Notes: generated by a model from the letters alone, not told the origin. DNA of 47,887 nucleotides from an uncultured Candidatus Saccharibacteria bacterium (GCA_964483025.1 CAYZZT010000001.1:1-47887), one strand, 5' to 3'. Shown: positions 1-46,337, numbered from the stretch's first letter. Made by a program: numbers and translations.

Positions 1-63
1 CAGACTAAATTCCAATCTGTTCTTCAAAACCAACAAACCAACCCCAACACCCCAACTACCACC

Positions 64-279
64 ATGAAAGAAAACACTGTATACGCGCTTAAGCTCATTG
101 GATGCATCTTGCTCGGATTCACCTTAGCCTTCGTCGCAATGGCACCCAGAATATGGGCAGCGAGGGAATCGCTCAACGAGATTCGGGCGAAAAGGGAAAT
201 CTTTGAACAGATCAAAAAGGAGGATGAGAAATTCCGCAAGGAACTACGCGAATCCTTTCGTTCTGACAAGGTGAAATAG
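64..279 (+). CDS. small membrane protein, 71 aa, unknown function
   Basis: Intact ORF with one hydrophobic helix (ALKLIGCILLGFTLAFVAMAP) and a K/E-rich tail. A/C-rich leader without SD. Stop TAG 277-279 lies inside a hairpin that precedes hammerhead 1. No family recognised. Confidence 0.5.
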   Translation: MKENTVYALKLIGCILLGFTLAFVAMAPRIWAARESLNEIRAKREIFEQIKKEDEKFRKELRESFRSDKVK

Positions 280-316
280 TGGTAAACCTACTAGGTTCTC
301 GATTAACCTTAAAATC

Positions 317-373
317 GTATCTGTCGGCAAGTGTGTACTTGTCCTGATGAGTCAAAAATGACGAAACAGACCA
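317..373 (+). ncRNA. hammerhead ribozyme, type III (HH1)
   Basis: Stem III 320-324/366-370. GUC cleavage triplet 323-325, cut predicted after C325. Stem I GGCAAG-UGUGUA-CUUGUC 326-343. Core CUGAUGA 344-350. Stem II GUCA-AAAA-UGAC 351-362. GAAA 363-366. All invariant core positions present. Confidence 0.85.
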
Positions 374-1061
374 GATCTTTAATAAAAACAGAAAATTCCT
401 TGCACCAAACCCTGTGCTCACCCCTTCGACAACCTCGCAAAAAAATATTGAGGATCAGGTGGGCTCAGGATTTGGTGCAGGGAGTTGTTGCGACCCCAGA
501 GCACGGAGTGAATAATTTGGGGTGCGGACTCCAAACAAGGGGGAATCGGCGGATTCTTCGGCTCAAGACTGGTAGCTCTTCAAATGGATACACTGGTCAC
601 CGCATGGGAAAAGCCATACACACGAGTTAGGTTTTGTAGGTGGTTGGAGGCTCTAACGCAAGAGCCGTCCGAGAACTGCTTACGAAACCCTGTGATGAGG
701 CAATTTCATGACTGCCTTTTCGATCACAGACTTTATTCTCCCAAAGAGGAAGGGGGAAGTCCCTCTTGTTAACTTGGCAAACCCAGGGGTCTTGTGTCGA
801 ATCAAGATCTCATCGCAACACATTTTCTTGGGTTCCGAAATCCAAGAAAATATTTTCAAAAAAACCGTGGCCTACGTCATCGTAAACGGGCTCGTGATGT
901 CTCTTCCGGAGTATCGCGAGTACGTTCGGAGCAAGTAATTGCTTCGTGGCCTGCTCCCATCGTGAGATGGAAAGCCGAGGTAGAGAAAACTACCTTGTGA
1001 ACAGAAATTTCAACTACTCAATCGAGTACTTGCAATAAATCACGGATAGATTTTCTATCCG
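374..1061 (+). ncRNA. ORF-poor, helix-rich segment between HH1 and HH2; unclassified structured RNA candidate
   Basis: Only short overlapping ORFs in all three plus frames with implausible products; no minus-strand ORF of 60 aa or more between 421 and 1616. Long-range helix 398-414/466-482 (17 bp, one mismatch) encloses helices 416-422/458-464 and 433-436/450-453. Extended hairpin 690-729 and many other local hairpins. No match to tmRNA, RNase P or SRP RNA recognised by eye. Confidence 0.4.
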
Positions 1062-1116
1062 TTACTGTCTCGAAGTGTGTACTTCGACTGATGAGCTTAA
1101 AAAAGCGAAACAGACC
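1062..1116 (+). ncRNA. hammerhead ribozyme, type III (HH2)
   Basis: GUC 1067-1069, cut after C1069. Stem I UCGAAG-UGUGUA-CUUCGA 1070-1087. CUGAUGA 1088-1094. Stem II GCUU-AAAA-AAGC 1095-1106. GAAA 1107-1110. Short stem III 1065-1068/1110-1113 (4 bp). Confidence 0.8.
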
Positions 1117-1585
1117 CTAAACAGCTAAAACTGTTGGGCAAGAAAGTTCTTTAAAATAACAGCTGTAACTCGTCTGTACATGAGAGTGTTTTTATAAACA
1201 TTCTCACGTGCAGGCGAGTGTAGCGCCATAGCATGTGTACTGTGATTAAACATTGTTTTGGTTCATCAAATCGATGAAAACCAAAGCTGTGTACAACCAT
1301 CACACTTTCGACATACCACCAAAAGCATAAACCAGATTAGATAGCAGTCGCTCGAACCCGTCGAGAGCCAACGATTGTTTCATATCTTTTAGTTATGTGA
1401 ATAGGTAGAAGGACCCAAAAACGGTCCGGGTATGTCATGACTCTGAAGGAGAAGGGGACAGTAAGCCTCTTATAAGAGTTATGGAGAGGGCTTGTAGAGC
1501 ATTGGTTGCTCGCTTGTCTAATCTGCTACACACTAATTTTTTTCTTTTGCAAAGTTAAAATCTAACCAAACCAAAACCAAAAACT
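1117..1585 (+). ncRNA. second ORF-free structured stretch downstream of HH2 (leader or ncRNA)
   Basis: No ORF of 60 aa or more on either strand. Long imperfect hairpin about 1171-1220. Long-range pairing cagattagata (about 1335-1347) with tgtctaatctg (about 1517-1530). Several nested hairpins. Ends in an A/C-rich tract aaccaaaccaaaaccaaaaac. Confidence 0.3.
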
Positions 1586-1990
1586 ATGGCCTATTACAGC
1601 ACATTCATATTCCAGTTACCTGGCTGTCCCGAGATTCATTTGAGTACTCGGTACGACATAATTCAGGAGTTCGACCAATGTCGCGGTTTTGGTGGAGGAA
1701 GGATTGCTTTCAAGCCCTTCTATAAACCTAGTCGTCGCATGTGCACGAGCCTGAATTGGGGTGGAGGCAAATCTCCGAGGGTGAAGCTGACTAAAAATCA
1801 GCGGAGAAAGATTCAAACCTTTCTCAAGGTGTTCTACCTCAAGGGTATTCACCACATTCCTCGGAAATACCGAAAGTTCGTAAAGAACGACGGTGTCTTC
1901 CCCCAAGAGTGTCTCCGCTAGGTGCTCTGGGATTGATTGCCTCCACGAGGCAACGGCAAATAATTCGTGGGAGTAGTGAAGCATTTCACT

Positions 1991-2067
1991 GGAGAATAAT
2001 TAAAATATTCTCCTCTCAATTGAGTTCGTCACATGGTGTGGTGGATTCATAGAGAAGTTCTTTAAAA
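1991..2067 (+). other. conserved motif A: hairpin + CAATTGAGTTC-[variable hairpin]-GATTCATAGAGAAGTTCTTTAAAA
   Basis: Hairpin 1991-2013, then conserved blocks 2014-2027 and 2044-2067 around a variable hairpin. Near-identical architecture at 2760-2837. Sits 18 nt upstream of the ORF starting at 2085. Confidence 0.5.
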
Positions 2068-2084
2068 CAAACAAGAGTAAATAT

Positions 2085-2684
2085 ATGAAGACCACACTTA
2101 CATCAGACCGTCTTATCGATTTTTTATTCCTTCTAAGAAAAAAAGGAGTAACTCCAGAAGTATTTGAGAAGTGTTTGGAGAGTAGAATTCTAAACGATGT
2201 GTTCAATCCGGAAGCAAAACTCACGAGCCGTGATGCTTGGCGAGTTGCCTTGGGCTTAGGCAGATATACTTTCATCGTTGACTATAGTATGTCCCTAAGT
2301 AAGATGCTTTTGGATGTTGGTGGATACTGGAACCACGTCGATCGTGATATCAACTCAATAAACTTTCCTATAGTAGGTGAAGGAATTATTGAATATGAGT
2401 TTAGAATTTTCCGGCCACGGGTAAAGACTAGTATGGAGTTGGAAAAAGTGATTAAGCTCATAAAAAGCGAAGACAAACGAAATCCTTGGGGGCCAGCAAA
2501 GATTGAGCATCTTATTGCTTTTGGTGGAAAATTTCCTGAAAAACAACTCAAAGGCAACATTGTCGCTCCTAGCCCGGTTAATATTCATGGAAAGTCAGTA
2601 ATGGTTTTACTTGCGGACGAGCAGGATGTAGACGGGATGATCGATGAACGCTCCATTGAGGTTTGTGGTTGTGACGCCCGCTAG
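2085..2684 (+). CDS. hypothetical protein, 199 aa
   Basis: Longest clean ORF in the hammerhead region with protein-like composition. Antisense ORFs look like shadows. No family recognised. Confidence 0.6.
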   Translation: MKTTLTSDRLIDFLFLLRKKGVTPEVFEKCLESRILNDVFNPEAKLTSRDAWRVALGLGRYTFIVDYSMSLSKMLLDVGGYWNHVDRDINSINFPIVGEGIIEYEFRIFRPRVKTSMELEKVIKLIKSEDKRNPWGPAKIEHLIAFGGKFPEKQLKGNIVAPSPVNIHGKSVMVLLADEQDVDGMIDERSIEVCGCDAR

Positions 2685-2759
2685 TCTGGAAGCCCTAGTT
2701 ACCTTGCGGTTCGTAAAGCCAAGCCTTTAGTTTCGTAGTCGGGAATAAAAAATCTTTTT

Positions 2760-2837
2760 AGCACTTTTTCAAAAGTAAAAAGTGCTTTCAATTGAGTTCT
2801 CAAAATGGTTTGAGAGTTCATAGAGAAGTTCTATAAA
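2760..2837 (+). other. conserved motif B (second copy of motif A architecture)
   Basis: Hairpin 2760-2786. TTCAATTGAGTTC 2787-2799. Variable hairpin tctcaaa/tttgaga 2798-2815. GTTCATAGAGAAGTTCTATAAA 2816-2837. Confidence 0.5.
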
Positions 2838-2840
2838 TTT

Positions 2841-2894
2841 TTGTGTATCCATAGTAAGAATGTTTAATTAAATTTTTTTACTATGGATACACAA
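2841..2894 (+). promoter_or_regulatory. perfect 17-bp hairpin sequestering the start codon of the 2883 ORF
   Basis: ttgtgtatccatagtaa 2841-2857 is the exact reverse complement of ttactatggatacacaa 2878-2894, with a 20-nt loop. ATG 2883-2885 lies in the 3' arm. Confidence 0.6.
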
Positions 2895-3104
2895 AACCAA
2901 AAAGGGGAAAACGCCACCCCGAATTACAAGTTGGCGTTCGTGCTTCTCGCAGTATTTTTTGCAGGGCAGGTGACTGGGTATTTTGCCCATGATCATCCTC
3001 CGGTGAAGAAACCAGCTGAAGTGAATCCTACCCACTTCGATTCTTATTACGAGGATTACGAAGATGGGTACGAAGCTCCTCTTTCGCCCGATGAGGTGAT
3101 TTAG
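2883..3104 (+). CDS. small membrane protein, 73 aa, unknown function
   Basis: ORF with one hydrophobic helix (LAFVLLAVFFAGQVTGYF) and an acidic Y/E/D-rich tail. Same layout as ORF 64-279: stop codon followed by two hairpins and a hammerhead. Confidence 0.5.
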   Translation: MDTQNQKGENATPNYKLAFVLLAVFFAGQVTGYFAHDHPPVKKPAEVNPTHFDSYYEDYEDGYEAPLSPDEVI

Positions 3105-3147
3105 GGGATGGTAGTAAATCTACCAGGTTTGAGAGTTAACCTTAAAA

Positions 3148-3209
3148 CTCTTTCTGTCTCGAAGTGTGTACTTCGGCTGATGATTCCGAAAGGATGAAAC
3201 AGAAACAGT
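3148..3209 (+). ncRNA. hammerhead ribozyme, type III (HH3, variant stem II closing pair)
   Basis: GUC 3156-3158, cut after C3158. Stem I UCGAAG-UGUGUA-CUUCGG 3159-3176. CUGAUGA 3177-3183. Stem II UUCC-GAAA-GGAU 3184-3195, with U-U at the 10.1/11.1 position. GAAA 3196-3199. Stem III 3151-3157/3199-3205 (7 bp). Confidence 0.75.
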
Positions 3210-3353
3210 TCATTGAAAAGCTTGCAAAAGCATGGATACAGCCAAAAGTATTTAATTATTTAAATTCTTCTGGCTGTATCTACCGGGTGGTAAATATAGT
3301 TAACGTTGGTCCAATCGTAAAAACAGGACTCGTATAGCGATAACGTCACCGCT

Positions 3354-3857
3354 TTGTTCATTGTGAAAAATAATCTGATTGCGTTCTACAAAACTATCCT
3401 TGCTTACCTCATTATCGACATCGAGTTTGATAACACAATTTCGGTAATTCTGGATCTTTTCAGGAAATCATCTCCGTCATGGGAGGCGACTGAGGAGAGC
3501 ATTCGGAAACTCCAAGAATGTGTTAATTATCCATCTTTGGTTGAAGATGATAGTGATTGGTCAACCACATTGAATGATTTTATCAAATCGGCATTCAAGG
3601 ATCTTTCGATTCTAAAGAATCCCGAAGCGATGGAGCTCTTTGATGAGTTGGCCAAAAAGTGTCTTCCGACTTTTCGGCACGGTGAAGACATGTTCATCTG
3701 GGCACGTACTATCAAAGAGCGCGTGGGTGGCAGTGCTGTCATCGTGCTCCACGTGAGCGATCTCGAAAGATTTCGCAAGATCATCGAGGAGCATGACCTC
3801 GTGGATGGTTCAACTGAGTGTTACACTCTTGAAGAGTGCATTCAGCTCGGGTCATGA
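3354..3857 (+). CDS. hypothetical protein, up to 167 aa (start uncertain, TTG or GTG)
   Basis: Long ORF with plausible acidic globular composition. No in-frame ATG near the 5' end (candidates TTG 3354, GTG 3363). Followed by an intrinsic terminator. Confidence 0.45.
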   Translation: MFIVKNNLIAFYKTILAYLIIDIEFDNTISVILDLFRKSSPSWEATEESIRKLQECVNYPSLVEDDSDWSTTLNDFIKSAFKDLSILKNPEAMELFDELAKKCLPTFRHGEDMFIWARTIKERVGGSAVIVLHVSDLERFRKIIEEHDLVDGSTECYTLEECIQLGS

Positions 3858-7168: not shown

Positions 7169-7483
7169 ATGCTAGTAAGAATTAAAACAGAAACTGGGTC
7201 TATGTATGACTTTGGCATTACAAGTTCGAAGTATTCGGCTTTTGCCCAAGTCATTCTAGGCGGAAACACAAAATGGGAAATTTACCTCGTTTCAGGTAAG
7301 CTGGAAGAAGAGTCTCTTGAAGATATGTTTCTCGCCGAAGGTTGGGCAAAAGCCAGTCGCGATATTCGGGAATACATCGGGAAACTGAATATTCCGAAGT
7401 TCATTAACACGATGAAGCGTTTTGCATATCCGGGTATCAATCTGGAATACTATGTAGCGAATCATCGCATCCCCGTTAGCTAA
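7169..7483 (+). CDS. hypothetical protein, 104 aa
   Basis: Clean ORF, visibly more G+C-rich than its neighbours. SD-like aggggag upstream; hairpin plus T-run downstream. No family recognised. Confidence 0.55.
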   Translation: MLVRIKTETGSMYDFGITSSKYSAFAQVILGGNTKWEIYLVSGKLEEESLEDMFLAEGWAKASRDIREYIGKLNIPKFINTMKRFAYPGINLEYYVANHRIPVS

Positions 7484-9297: not shown

Positions 9298-10125
9298 ATG
9301 ATTCATAAATATTGTTATTTTCAGGGTGCCATTACTCAGTTTGATAAGGCTCACATATCACTAAATGATCTCGGGGTCCTTCGTGGTTATGGAGTTTTTG
9401 ATTTTTATAGGTCATACAATGGCAAACCTTTTTATTTAAAAGAGCATTATGCTCGTTTTCAAAACTCAGCTAGAAGCATTGGCCTTACTGTACCGGTTTC
9501 ATTTAAGAATTTTGAAAAAATTACTCTAGATTTATTAAAGAAAAATAAAGTAAAAGATGCAAGTTTCAGGGCTGTATTACTTGGAGGGCCGGTTCAAAAT
9601 AGTTTAGCTCCGGCCAGGCCAACTTTTTATATTCTTAATGAAGAGGCATATGCACCGACAGACGAACAAGCAAAAAATGGAGTGAGTTTAATGGTGCATG
9701 AATATCTCCGCTATATTCCAGAAGCAAAAACAACAAATTATATGGAGGCCGTGAAGATGCAGAAAGAAAAAATAAAACAAAAAGCCTATGAGATTTTGTA
9801 TGTTTTAAATGGAGAGGTTTTGGAATGTTCCACAAGCAATATTTTTATGATAAAAGGTAAGCATCTTGTAACACCAAAGAAAAATATTCTAAAAGGAATT
9901 ACGAGAAAAGTTATTTTGAAAATTGCGAAGAAGGATTTTATAATAGAGGAGAGAGATGTAGAAATTTATGAGCTTCTTTTGGCTGATGAAGTATTTATTT
10001 CTGGTACGAATAAGGAAATCCTTCCTATTGTAAAAGTTGGAAAGAAAGTTATTGGAAATGGAAAAGTGGGGGAGAAGACAAAATTATTGATGAAACTTTG
10101 GAAGGACATAACACATAACATATAA
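9298..10125 (+). CDS. class IV (fold type IV) aminotransferase, branched-chain or D-amino-acid type
   Basis: GYGVFDFYRSYNGKPFYLKEHYARF N-terminal signature. Catalytic-Lys context EAKTTNYMEAV. C-terminal ISGTNKEILPI motif. ATG 9298 preferred over the upstream alternative start. Confidence 0.8.
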   Translation: MIHKYCYFQGAITQFDKAHISLNDLGVLRGYGVFDFYRSYNGKPFYLKEHYARFQNSARSIGLTVPVSFKNFEKITLDLLKKNKVKDASFRAVLLGGPVQNSLAPARPTFYILNEEAYAPTDEQAKNGVSLMVHEYLRYIPEAKTTNYMEAVKMQKEKIKQKAYEILYVLNGEVLECSTSNIFMIKGKHLVTPKKNILKGITRKVILKIAKKDFIIEERDVEIYELLLADEVFISGTNKEILPIVKVGKKVIGNGKVGEKTKLLMKLWKDITHNI

Positions 10126-10130
10126 CTTGT

Positions 10131-10203
10131 GTCATTCCCGCGGAGGCGGGAATCCATGAATTAAATACTACAGACTGGATTCCCGCCTCCGCGGGAATGA
10201 CAG
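10131..10203. repeat. MITE-like element (two inverted hairpin modules)
   Basis: gtcattcccgcggaggcgggaatccatg ... cagactggattcccgcctccgcgggaatgacag. Confidence 0.75.
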
Positions 10204-10259
10204 TCGATAAGCAAAAAATCGCCGTTAGGCGATTTTTTGATTTTTCCCTCGAGAGAAAA

Positions 10260-26046: not shown

Positions 26047-26200
26047 GTGCGGGGCACCCGCGCCCATAAATTCAAACAGATGGGCGGGGTTACCCGCGCC
26101 CTTAAATACTTAAAGAAGGGCGGGGTTACCCGCGCCCTTAAATACTTAAAGAAGGGCGGGGTTACCCGCGCCCTTAAATACTTAAAGAAGGGCGGGGTTA
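26047..26200. repeat. 36-bp tandem repeat: one degenerate unit, three exact units, one partial unit
   Basis: Units gggcggggttacccgcgcccttaaatacttaaagaa at 26082, 26118 and 26154. Partial unit 26190-26200. Degenerate unit 26047-26081. Confidence 0.9.
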
Positions 26201-31332: not shown

Positions 31333-32541
31333 ATGAAATTCTTTTATACATCAGTCGCACCAGATGGAGAGCGTAAAAGTGGAACGCGTGAAGCTTCCGA
31401 CAAATTTCAGCTTGCAAATGATTTAAAAGCTGAAGGGGAAATAGTGCTTTCTGTAAAAAAAGCAAAAAAGGCTGAATTTTTTTCTTTAAATTTTTCTTTT
31501 TTTAATCGTGTAAAAACTCATGAGAAGATCATTTTTGCTAGAAATCTAGCTTCAATGCTTGAAGCGGGGCTTGCTATTTCTCGCGCTCTTTCTGTTATTG
31601 AAAGGCAAACAAAAAATGTTGGATTGAAAAATATTGTTGTATCAATAAATGATGATATAAAAAAAGGAAAATCTTTATCAGCAGGAATGAAAATGTTTCC
31701 TAAGATATTTCCACCAATGTTTGTTTCGATGGTTCTCTCGGGGGAAGAATCTGGAAAACTTTCTGAGGCCCTAAATGTTGTTGCTTCACAAATGGAAAAG
31801 ATGTATTTACTTCAGAAGAAATTGAAGGGAGCGTTGATATATCCTGCTGTTATTATTTTTGCAATGATTGGTATTGCTATTTTTATGTTAATTTATATTG
31901 TTCCAACGCTTGCAAAAACATTTAAAGAAATTGGGACCGAACTTCCTGCGAGTACACGATTTATAATATGGATTAGTGATACCTTTCAGGCACATATGAT
32001 TTTGGTATTGACTTCAATTATTTCTATCGTGGTTTTATTGGTTTTGGCTGGTCGCACAAAGATGGGAAAAAGAATGTTTGATTATTCTTTTCTCCACGTT
32101 CCACTAATCTCAGGGCTTGTAAAAGAATCTAATTCAGCTAAAACTACACGAACTCTTTCCTCCCTCCTTACTTCGGGTGTTTCTGTTGTGGAGGCATTAA
32201 GCATAACAAAAGATGTTTTACAAAATTCATATTATAAAGAAGTGATTGAGAAAGCAAAACATAATGTAGAAATTGGAGCACCGATGTCAGAAGTTTTTGC
32301 TGGATATGAAAATTTATATCCTGTTTTTGTGGGTGAAATGATTGCTGTTGGAGAGGAAACGGGTGATTTGGGAGGGACCCTTTTGCGGGTAGCTGTTTTT
32401 TATGAAGAAGAAGTAGAACAAAAAACAAAAGATATGTCCACAATTATTGAGCCATTTTTAATGCTTTTTGTGGGAGTGGCTGTTGGTTTTTTTGCAATTT
32501 CAATGATCTCACCTATTTATTCAATTGTTGATAAGATTTAA
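31333..32541 (+). CDS. pilC: type IV pilus platform protein PilC (GspF family)
   Basis: Two T2SS-F domains, three TM segments, 402 aa. TGaTATAAT 7 nt before the ATG. Confidence 0.9.
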   Translation: MKFFYTSVAPDGERKSGTREASDKFQLANDLKAEGEIVLSVKKAKKAEFFSLNFSFFNRVKTHEKIIFARNLASMLEAGLAISRALSVIERQTKNVGLKNIVVSINDDIKKGKSLSAGMKMFPKIFPPMFVSMVLSGEESGKLSEALNVVASQMEKMYLLQKKLKGALIYPAVIIFAMIGIAIFMLIYIVPTLAKTFKEIGTELPASTRFIIWISDTFQAHMILVLTSIISIVVLLVLAGRTKMGKRMFDYSFLHVPLISGLVKESNSAKTTRTLSSLLTSGVSVVEALSITKDVLQNSYYKEVIEKAKHNVEIGAPMSEVFAGYENLYPVFVGEMIAVGEETGDLGGTLLRVAVFYEEEVEQKTKDMSTIIEPFLMLFVGVAVGFFAISMISPIYSIVDKI

Positions 32542-45468: not shown

Positions 45469-45698
45469 ATACACAAACAAGACGCTATAGCGTCAGTTGT
45501 GTGTATCTTCTATTCGTACCATAGGTAGTACATTATTAAGAGATAACAGATTATCTTTTGTAAATACACAAACAAGACGCTATAGCGTCAGTTGTGTGTA
45601 TGTATATTTTGTTTGTGTTGTCGGCTAGGATTTTTGAAAATACATTTCTTTATTTAATATATACACAAACAAGACGCTATAGCGTCAGTTGTGTGTAT
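45469..45698. repeat. three identical 38-bp palindromic repeats (R1-R3) upstream of the Cas2/PaaX-like gene
   Basis: atacacaaacaagacgctatagcgtcagttgtgtgtat at 45469-45506, 45564-45601 and 45661-45698. Unrelated spacers of 57 and 59 nt. Confidence 0.9.
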
Positions 45699-45776
45699 GT
45701 GGGTTATTGTATTAAAAAATATTCACCCATACACATATTTAAATGCATAAAAAATATAGAAGAGTATAATATTTGT

Positions 45777-46337
45777 ATGGTAAAAGTTGTTAAAAAAATC
45801 CAGAGGGGAGATATCACAAGAACTATTCTAGAAATTGCAAAAGCTACAGGATTGATAGCTACAGCACTAGTTGCTCCTAACGTATTGAGTGCTTTTGCAA
45901 AACTAGGCATCGTTGATTTACATGGGAGACAAAATGAAGTGATAAGACGGGCTAGGAATATTTTAATAAAGAATGGGTGCTTGAAGAAAAATAAGGAAGG
46001 TTTTTTATGTTTGACTGAGAAAGGACAAGAAAAGCTTGATTCCTATAGATTATCAGAGTACACGCTTTTGATTCCAAAAACTTGGGATAAAAAGTGGGGA
46101 GTTTTAATTTTTGATATTCCAGAGTATAGAAAATCTTTGAGAGATAAAATAAGAAAAGAATTAACCAAAATTCATTTTATACGTGTTCAAGATAGTGTTT
46201 GGATTTTTCCATATGACTGCGAAGAGCTTGTTGCACTTCTAAAGGCTGATTTTAAAGTAGGGGAGGATCTACAATATATGGTGGTTCATAAAATTGAAAA
46301 TGATGACAGGCTTCGCAAGGCTTTTCATTTGGCTTAA
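45777..46337 (+). CDS. Cas2-fold / PaaX-C-like protein with putative N-terminal winged helix, 186 aa
   Basis: WDKKWGVLIFDIPEYRKSLRDKIRKELTKIHFIRVQDSVWIFP matches the W-D-x-K-W...FDIPE...LR...L...GF..LQ.SVW.xP signature shared by the PaaX C-terminal domain and Cas2-like proteins. RRARNILIKNGCLKKNKEGFLCLTEKGQEKL looks like a wHTH wing. TATAAT 6 nt before the ATG. Confidence 0.7.
   Translation: MVKVVKKIQRGDITRTILEIAKATGLIATALVAPNVLSAFAKLGIVDLHGRQNEVIRRARNILIKNGCLKKNKEGFLCLTEKGQEKLDSYRLSEYTLLIPKTWDKKWGVLIFDIPEYRKSLRDKIRKELTKIHFIRVQDSVWIFPYDCEELVALLKADFKVGEDLQYMVVHKIENDDRLRKAFHLA

Follow-up and report, generated by a model that had tools for sequence, protein, structure and literature searches.

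What is made from a stretch of bacterial chromosome that lies between two hammerhead ribozymes and at first sight holds no gene? This question is raised by positions 326-1069 of a 47,887-nucleotide (nt) DNA from an uncultured Candidatus Saccharibacteria bacterium (GCA_964483025.1, CAYZZT010000001.1:1-47887), the whole of which is called the window here. A first-pass annotation had described these 744 nt as rich in helices and poor in open reading frames (ORFs), and had proposed an excised or circular non-coding RNA (ncRNA). Our analysis indicates that the flanking hammerheads, HH1 and HH2, very probably excise the segment. On a slight balance of probability, we read it as one unit of a hammerhead-punctuated polycistronic transcript, processed to a stable linear RNA. 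The window, judged by its gene content, comes from the chromosome of a Patescibacteria (candidate phyla radiation, CPR) bacterium; it carries genes for RNase Y, ClpP, trigger factor, NusA, type IV pilus proteins, TIM, PGK, RecJ, ComEC and ComM, and exact copies of it were found in several metagenome assemblies.

Both flanking hammerheads are intact type III motifs on the + strand, with cut sites where the first-pass annotation had placed them. HH1 (318-372) has its cut site at C325/G326 and HH2 (1062-1116) at C1069/U1070, leaving exactly 744 nt between the two. Their catalytic cores are complete (CUGAUGA...GAAA, A15.1-U16.1 and C17), and tested against the type III core of RF00008 both have a stem I of 6-7 base pairs (bp), a stem II of 4 bp and an open stem III of 4-5 bp; for HH1, core and stems were verified. 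A clade-specific covariance model built from 28 related Patescibacteria hammerheads (model R1) scores HH1 at 74.5 bits (E 9e-21) and HH2 at 72.9 bits. The same array contains a third type III hammerhead on the + strand, HH3 (3151-3205, cut site C3158/U3159, 74.5 bits). Base pair 10.1/11.1 in its stem II is U-U instead of the usual G-C, a variant also seen in L046 (related loci and contigs are referred to by L numbers), and the activity of HH3 is therefore uncertain. The pattern CTGATGA-N6-30-GAAAC occurs three times in the window, where 0.22 occurrences are expected. No hammerhead was found on the minus strand of the window in a scan with model R1, and the only direct repeats at the unit are 68 nt long, spanning the hammerhead and a few flanking bases.

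All three + strand hammerheads lie downstream of one promoter with ORFs between them, which is the layout of clustered hammerheads. This promoter, a perfect sigma-70-type sequence (TTGACA-16-TATAAT), is situated about 80-105 nt upstream of window position 1, at 2425-2452 of L001, a contig identical to the window that extends upstream. It is homologous to the promoter of L047, and no strong internal promoter or terminator was seen in the operon. The first ORF (64-279, + strand) encodes a small membrane protein of 71 amino acids (aa), with homologs of 75-85% identity in L050-L052 at the same place ahead of a pseudoknot and a hammerhead. The unit of this ORF ends in a 3'-end module (277-317, + strand) that could be read from the sequence as a hairpin at 277-293 followed by an H-type pseudoknot. 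The pseudoknot stems, AGGUU 293-297/AACCU 305-309 and CGAUU 300-304/AAUCG 313-317, end 1 nt 5' of HH1 stem III. Stem B covaries, with AGAGUU/AACUCU at HH3 and GAGUU/AACUC in L024, and 292-317 gives a weak match (18.2 bits) to the Rfam TYMV upstream-pseudoknot. Within the window, pseudoknots precede hammerheads at 293-317 and 3122-3150.

The 744-nt RNA folds far better than expected by chance, as the richness in helices had suggested. Its minimum free energy (MFE) is -286.9 kcal/mol, corresponding to z = -10.5 against shuffles on the + strand, compared with -5.3 on the minus strand and -1.35 for a 744-nt coding control. The long-range helix of the first-pass annotation recurs in the MFE and consensus folds as 394-409/470-485 with its inner tiers, and so does the two-tier hairpin (689-729). 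Rfam was scanned at the gathering score, at E <= 1 on the window and at E <= 10 with relaxed filters on 280-1600. For the window, only hammerheads, one tRNA and sub-threshold matches at chance level were returned. GOLLD, ROOL, HEARO, OLE, raiA, RNase P, signal recognition particle (SRP) RNA and group I/II introns gave no match even at E <= 10 on 280-1600, so that the large-RNA models proposed for checking are covered and the earlier impression that this is not a transfer-messenger RNA (tmRNA), RNase P, SRP RNA or group I/II intron is borne out. A tmRNA reading of the window RNA was also rejected because ARAGORN and Rfam find no tRNA-like domain in 1-3500. Complementarity between the RNA and the rest of the window is limited to chance 11-mers.

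A conventional protein gene did not emerge from the interval either. Recoding of TGA, TAG or TAA opens no convincing long ORF, none of the ORFs of the interval in any frame has a Pfam match, and a 99-aa ORF found no candidate homolog in a database of 5.8 billion proteins. A frameshift-corrected protein homolog, named beforehand as one of the results that would refute the proposal, was recovered neither from the frames and altered codes nor by Pfam and protein searches. The ORF list also confirms that there is no minus-strand ORF of 60 aa or more between 421 and 1616.

On sequence grounds, the first part of the unit, from 373 to about 830, is a member of a previously undescribed family of ~650-nt structured ORF-less RNAs. 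It begins with an A-rich leader, UCUUUAAUAAAAACAG (373-393, + strand), which alignments show to be common to all family members directly after their hammerhead. The leader is followed by domain A (394-485, + strand), a long hairpin with the basal helix 394-409/470-485 and an apical AAAUAUU-type loop in the MFE and consensus folds, and directly after it by the conserved strand GCAGGGAGUUGUUGCGACCCCAGAG. The 124-nt block 381-504 has only 2 differences between the window and L018, with 79% identity over the whole L018 homolog, and the similarity is as high for both domain A copies of the companion contig L039. The basal helix recurs in L005, L007 and L051 with 2 compensatory and 4 G-U wobble changes, which fit the + strand only. 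Domain B (487-826, + strand) is multi-branched in the consensus fold and closed by GUUGCGA (487-493)/UCGCAAC (820-826). This closing helix covaries, being GUUGAGA/UCUCAAC in L007 and UUACGCGA/UCGCGUAA in L005, and the inner helices show compensatory changes relative to L018 and L039a. Over 373-866, the substitutions relative to L018 are clustered and without codon periodicity. Domain B is followed by an AU-rich hairpin (829-858, + strand) that the alignments place in the window lineage only, at the position of the terminal pseudoknot element of L018 and of a lost internal hammerhead. Homologous ORF-less units lie between two hammerheads in L039 (670 nt, z = -5.9) and L007 (651 nt, z = -7.1), as is the case wherever the two ends of a member are visible outside the window, and further members are held by L051 and L005; in all of them a hammerhead stands immediately upstream. 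The search for homologs in other genomes, which the annotation had recommended, has thus yielded hammerhead-bounded relatives with covarying helices.

The statement that the interval has no credible ORF does not hold, since a conserved micro-ORF with a strong coding signature is present at 867-938 (+ strand). It has a GTG start and encodes 23 aa, MAYVIVNGLVMSLPEYREYVRSK, and was aligned across seven loci (window, L018, L024, L007, L047, L045 and L043). The homologs begin with ATG, and the consensus is M(T/A)YVxVNGLVMSLEDYRE(Y/F)VRSK(RP). Pairwise differences at codon positions 1, 2 and 3 amount to 62, 54 and 159, and 108 codon differences are synonymous in frame compared with 22-24 off frame. 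The stop codon always falls within a hairpin tetraloop (GUAA, GUGA, AUAA or GUAG). That the micro-ORF has no Shine-Dalgarno (SD) sequence does not speak against its predicted translation, since most genes of this genome have none either and several look leaderless. A search of the protein database with the micro-peptide returned only the window's own 76-aa ORF. Origin of the peptide from Phd/YefM was rejected, with no PF02604 match at E <= 10 and no PDB match.

Downstream of the coding part, a region of five hairpins (926-1062, + strand) is supported by covariation in six sequences. It comprises P2 (926-947, with the stop codon in its GUAA loop), P3 (953-975), P4 (976-997), the conserved single strand UGAACAGAA (998-1006), P5 (1007-1036) and P6 (1042-1062). 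Both sides change in 24 of the 40 pairs of P2-P6, and 94% of cells are paired, compared with 36-42% when the partners are slid; the observed values were reached in none of 500 shuffles. This micro-ORF module lies directly upstream of a hammerhead in six lineages. The proposal of an excised ncRNA therefore stands in part. Excision is very probable and both 373-866 and 939-1062 are structured with covariation, but the label ncRNA is incomplete because the segment holds a real micro-ORF.

How these two parts came to share one unit is indicated by related loci. A search of species-representative genomes with the stem-I loop shared by HH1-HH3 as pattern gave 39 loci, almost all from Saccharibacteria, Paceibacterota or other Patescibacteria. 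Many are arrays of 3-6 hammerheads spaced 400-900 nt apart, and contigs L039 and L018 of one metagenome-assembled genome together hold at least 10. Most units between hammerheads contain one small ORF, often for a small membrane protein. Among 81 hammerhead-like sites (loci L003-L047), most are preceded within a few nt by a stable hairpin or an H-type pseudoknot; the pseudoknots have an A-rich third loop, and their stems covary between sites. These structures may serve to protect the 3' end, or they may extend the short stem III coaxially. The ncRNA units of L039a and L007 end in a conserved pseudoknot element, CUGUC and the hammerhead. In L018, the terminal pseudoknot element is kept, the hammerhead is lost and the micro-ORF follows directly. 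From L018 and from the ends of the L039a and L007 units it follows that the 744-nt unit of the window is an ncRNA unit fused to a micro-ORF unit. The earlier view of the segment as a single RNA gene has therefore been replaced by that of two modules that are found separately elsewhere. In L047, the micro-ORF module is the first unit after the promoter and has a hammerhead on its 3' side only, so the module can do without a cut at one of its ends. The contig ends of L002, L018 and L039 were rejected as RNA ends; they fall in repeats (hammerhead, pseudoknot and domain A) and not at cut sites, and are therefore assembly breaks.

In three of the sister loci (L007, L024 and L045), the micro-ORF module stands behind a 65-nt tRNA-like domain of the tmRNA type (RF00023, 60-66 bits). 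These scores exceed the Rfam tmRNA gathering threshold (GA) of 47, and the domain is missed by ARAGORN. It was located at L007 6449-6513 (-), L024 5922-5986, L045 2521-2585, L016 ~7290-7370 (-) and, partially, L051 ~892-919. The domain combines a T arm and CCA with an acceptor stem of 7 bp that contains G3-U70, and it includes no mRNA-like region. A single hairpin replaces the tmRNA body; its tetraloop swaps between UUCG and GCAA and the closing pair covaries. The domain is placed between the hammerhead and the micro-ORF module, in L016 before the ncRNA domain, and is absent from the window.

Cassette-like variation is also seen at the locus itself. The 1.7 kb from 1156 to 2826, with ORF111 and ORF199, are absent from the otherwise 99%-identical L046, and ORF199 is flanked by direct repeats of leader sequence of about 55 nt (2013-2066 and 2785-2837). 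To judge by these repeats, 1156-2826 looks like a cassette gained or lost through recombination between leaders. In L050, a different unit follows HH1.

Taken together, these features suggest the following mechanism. Transcription would start at the upstream promoter and run through the 71-aa membrane-protein ORF, HH1, the 744-nt unit, HH2, further small ORFs and HH3, and each hammerhead most likely cleaves itself co-transcriptionally. The 744-nt linear product would then begin with a 5'-OH and a compact hammerhead fold and terminate in the stable hairpin P6 and CUGUC with a 2',3'-cyclic phosphate. Ends of this kind would plausibly keep nucleases away from either terminus and make each unit independent of its neighbours in stability and translation. 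A role of the terminal hairpins and pseudoknots in protecting the ends and in setting the stability of each unit is also suggested by their regular placement. The internal hammerhead between the two modules has been lost in the window lineage, and the ncRNA part would consequently now form a long structured 5' region of a micro-ORF mRNA. A function of the ncRNA part in trans might exist beside this role.

Several observations weigh against this reading of the segment as a processed linear unit. On RF00008, HH1 scores 39.0 bits (E 5e-5) and HH2 35.5 bits (E 5e-4), both below the gathering threshold of 48.5; the shortfall arises because the stem-I loop is larger and stem II shorter than in the Rfam seed. 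Within 487-826, covariation amounts to 6 compensatory pairs and rests on few sequences, as full-length homologs of the fused unit come from two lineages only (window/L046 and L018). That domain A is nearly invariant between the window and the bin-301 copies is not explained by a simple structural role and points to sequence-specific recognition. Finally, the 23-aa peptide has no Pfam match (E <= 10) and no PDB match by sequence or profile.

Among the alternatives, the one that survives best is a cis-regulatory leader, in which 373-866 would be a large riboswitch-like or protein-binding 5' untranslated region controlling either translation of the micro-ORF or HH2 cleavage and the downstream cistrons, and would not act as an RNA in its own right. 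In the window and in L018, the domain is indeed directly upstream of the micro-ORF, and other lineages place a structured module, the tmRNA-like tRNA-like domain, at that position, which suggests that a structured 5' element is wanted there. However, in L039a and L007 the same RNA stands alone between hammerheads, and no ORF follows it within the unit. An allosteric control of the ribozyme, with UGAACAGAA competing for hammerhead stem III, was rejected, since it fails in L043, where stem III differs and the motif is unmatched. We consider the leader unlikely.

The circular RNA (circRNA) of the first-pass annotation is also an unlikely alternative, and slightly more so. In this case, the CUGUC 3' end with its cyclic phosphate would pair with GAAACAG of HH1, and the ends of the 744-nt RNA would be joined by the reverse reaction or by an RtcB-type ligase. 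The circle would be a bacterial analogue of retrozyme or viroid-like circles and might be translated or act as a stable ncRNA. Reading the sequence confirms that the end geometry is correct and that the joined ends rebuild a hammerhead with a 4-bp stem III. Nearly all hammerheads of the arrays share the stem III CUGU/ACAG, so the ends of any array unit are compatible; moreover, in the MFE fold the 5' and 3' regions lie close to each other, and all ncRNA-family members have the hammerhead immediately upstream. However, this geometry is unspecific, being true of any two hammerheads of the same type in series and of every protein-coding unit of the arrays. Stem III is only 4-5 bp long, and a short hammerhead stem III favours product release over ligation. 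The micro-ORF module of L047 has no upstream hammerhead, and loss of the internal hammerhead altered the unit size with both modules kept. Long-terminal-repeat-like repeats are missing (68 nt only), as is a minus-strand ribozyme. Clustered bacterial hammerheads have been examined for circular or spliced products and none were detected (PMC3088659). The analogy with viroids and retrozymes therefore gains no positive evidence from the unspecific geometry, the 68-nt repeats and the + strand hammerheads. In its widest form, the idea would be that array units, including the 744-nt RNA, are excised and circularised in vivo, the 744-nt circle combining a large conserved ncRNA fold with a translatable micro-ORF, and that the interchangeable 5' modules (ncRNA domain A/B or a mini-tmRNA tRNA-like domain) mark a new RNA-based accessory system; this we regard as improbable to the same degree. 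If units were circular, hammerhead circRNA biology would be extended to bacteria, with the first DNA-encoded hammerhead circRNAs there.

It is highly improbable that the hammerheads and the intervening sequence are relics of a decayed prophage or mobile element (a pseudogene or dead ribozymes), for although the locus is cassette-like and variable (1156-2826 missing in L046, another unit after HH1 in L050) and HH3 has its U-U mispair at 10.1/11.1, there is no ORF in any frame or altered code and no Pfam match or protein homolog, substitutions keep the helices and the micro-ORF frame across lineages, the HH1 and HH2 cores are intact and the fold reaches z = -10.5.

The linear processed unit is closest to what has been described for clustered hammerheads in bacterial prophage operons, where processing of a long transcript to gene-length RNAs was proposed and all hammerheads cleaved in vitro (PMC3088659). 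Like the clusters of Perreault et al. (2011), the present arrays have several hammerheads in the same orientation on one transcript, flanking single genes or short blocks. Unlike them, they belong to a Patescibacteria host and reach at least 10 type III hammerheads in series. Furthermore, one of their units consists largely of structured ncRNA and also holds a micro-ORF, and most hammerheads abut the 3'-terminal hairpin or pseudoknot of the preceding unit. A phage connection was looked for in several ways. No phage hallmark genes were found near the locus, whose neighbours are chromosomal genes such as those for ComM, ClpP and RNase Y, PHROGs gave no match for any window protein tested, and blastn of 280-1600 against plasmid and phage collections found none. 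In scans of viral contigs, the domain A and B patterns returned nothing or a chance match and the micro-ORF pattern nothing; one related array is carried by the IMG/VR contig L042.

With retrozymes and eukaryotic hammerhead circRNAs (PMC5680766, PMC7761336), the segment shares an ORF-poor structured RNA of 600-1000 nt between two type III hammerheads and ends that are able to reconstitute a hammerhead. Here, however, it lies on a bacterial chromosome, in an operon with protein-coding units, and contains a conserved micro-ORF, and its circularity is putative. Retrozymes have hammerhead-bearing terminal repeats of hundreds of nt, compared with 68 nt at this unit. No evidence of retrotransposition was seen at the window unit, where a primer binding site, polypurine tract and target site duplication were not searched for. 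Nor does the RNA resemble a viroid-like replicon, as it has hammerheads on the + strand only and is DNA-encoded in a chromosome, in several assemblies.

Like GOLLD, ROOL, HEARO, OLE and raiA, the RNA is several hundred nt long, has a multi-branched conserved fold and occurs in accessory or mobile regions. It differs from these in its architecture, in which a closed multi-branch domain comes after a long hairpin, and in its predicted release by ribozymes. A partial likeness to tmRNA is seen in sister loci, which place the 65-nt tRNA-like domain before the micro-ORF module, and in the stop codon within a hairpin loop, as tmRNA stop codons also lie in a hairpin loop. In contrast to tmRNA, the window has no tRNA-like domain, the ORF has a conserved AUG/GUG start and the end of the peptide does not resemble a degradation tag. 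In the sister loci, moreover, the tRNA-like domain precedes the ORF on the 5' side and has a tetraloop hairpin of its own that closes it.

Clusters of hammerheads in bacteria have been on record since 2011; the Patescibacteria loci are an unusually rich and regular example. Within the literature that was searched, no work connects hammerheads with Saccharibacteria, CPR or Patescibacteria. The processing of operons by clustered hammerheads is known, and what is new are the arrays in Patescibacteria, the terminal pseudoknot design, the ~650-nt ncRNA family, the micro-ORF module and the mini-tmRNA module of sister loci. These loci give a testable model of ribozyme-based operon punctuation in a setting where SD-led initiation is largely lacking, and through them a branch of bacteria that has received little study gains a new large ncRNA family and a new micro-protein.

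Some further observations were made around the locus and elsewhere in the window. Directly after HH2, 1117-1585 is a second ORF-poor, well-folded stretch (z = -7.2) with no homolog found; it opens with the same hairpin and GGGCAAGA-GUUCUUUAA leader that stand before domain A in L039b. On the minus strand of L001 (1850-2215), a short distance before the window begins, a divergent promoter (TTGACA-17-TATACT with TG) and a strong bidirectional terminator are present. Between these signals lie about 300 nt that are GC-rich, ORF-less and without an Rfam match, and a similar arrangement occurs in L047. By its layout, this stretch may be another ncRNA gene. At 10090-10225, repeated palindromic hairpins (CAUUCCCGCGGAGGCGGGAAUC) follow an aminotransferase gene, with chance-level Rfam matches on both strands. 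Tandem copies of GC-rich hairpins (GGGCGGGGUUACCCGCGCCC and UUAAAUACUUAAAGAAGG) are found at 26075-26180, with a sub-threshold match to the Rfam family 'Termite-leu' (37.8 bits, GA 51). Housekeeping genes without SD start for instance at 31333, 37009 and 40516, and in several of them a TATAAT-like box precedes the ATG by 6-10 nt, which suggests widespread leaderless mRNAs in this organism. Finally, an ORF at 45594-46337 carries a PaaX central/Cas2-like domain.

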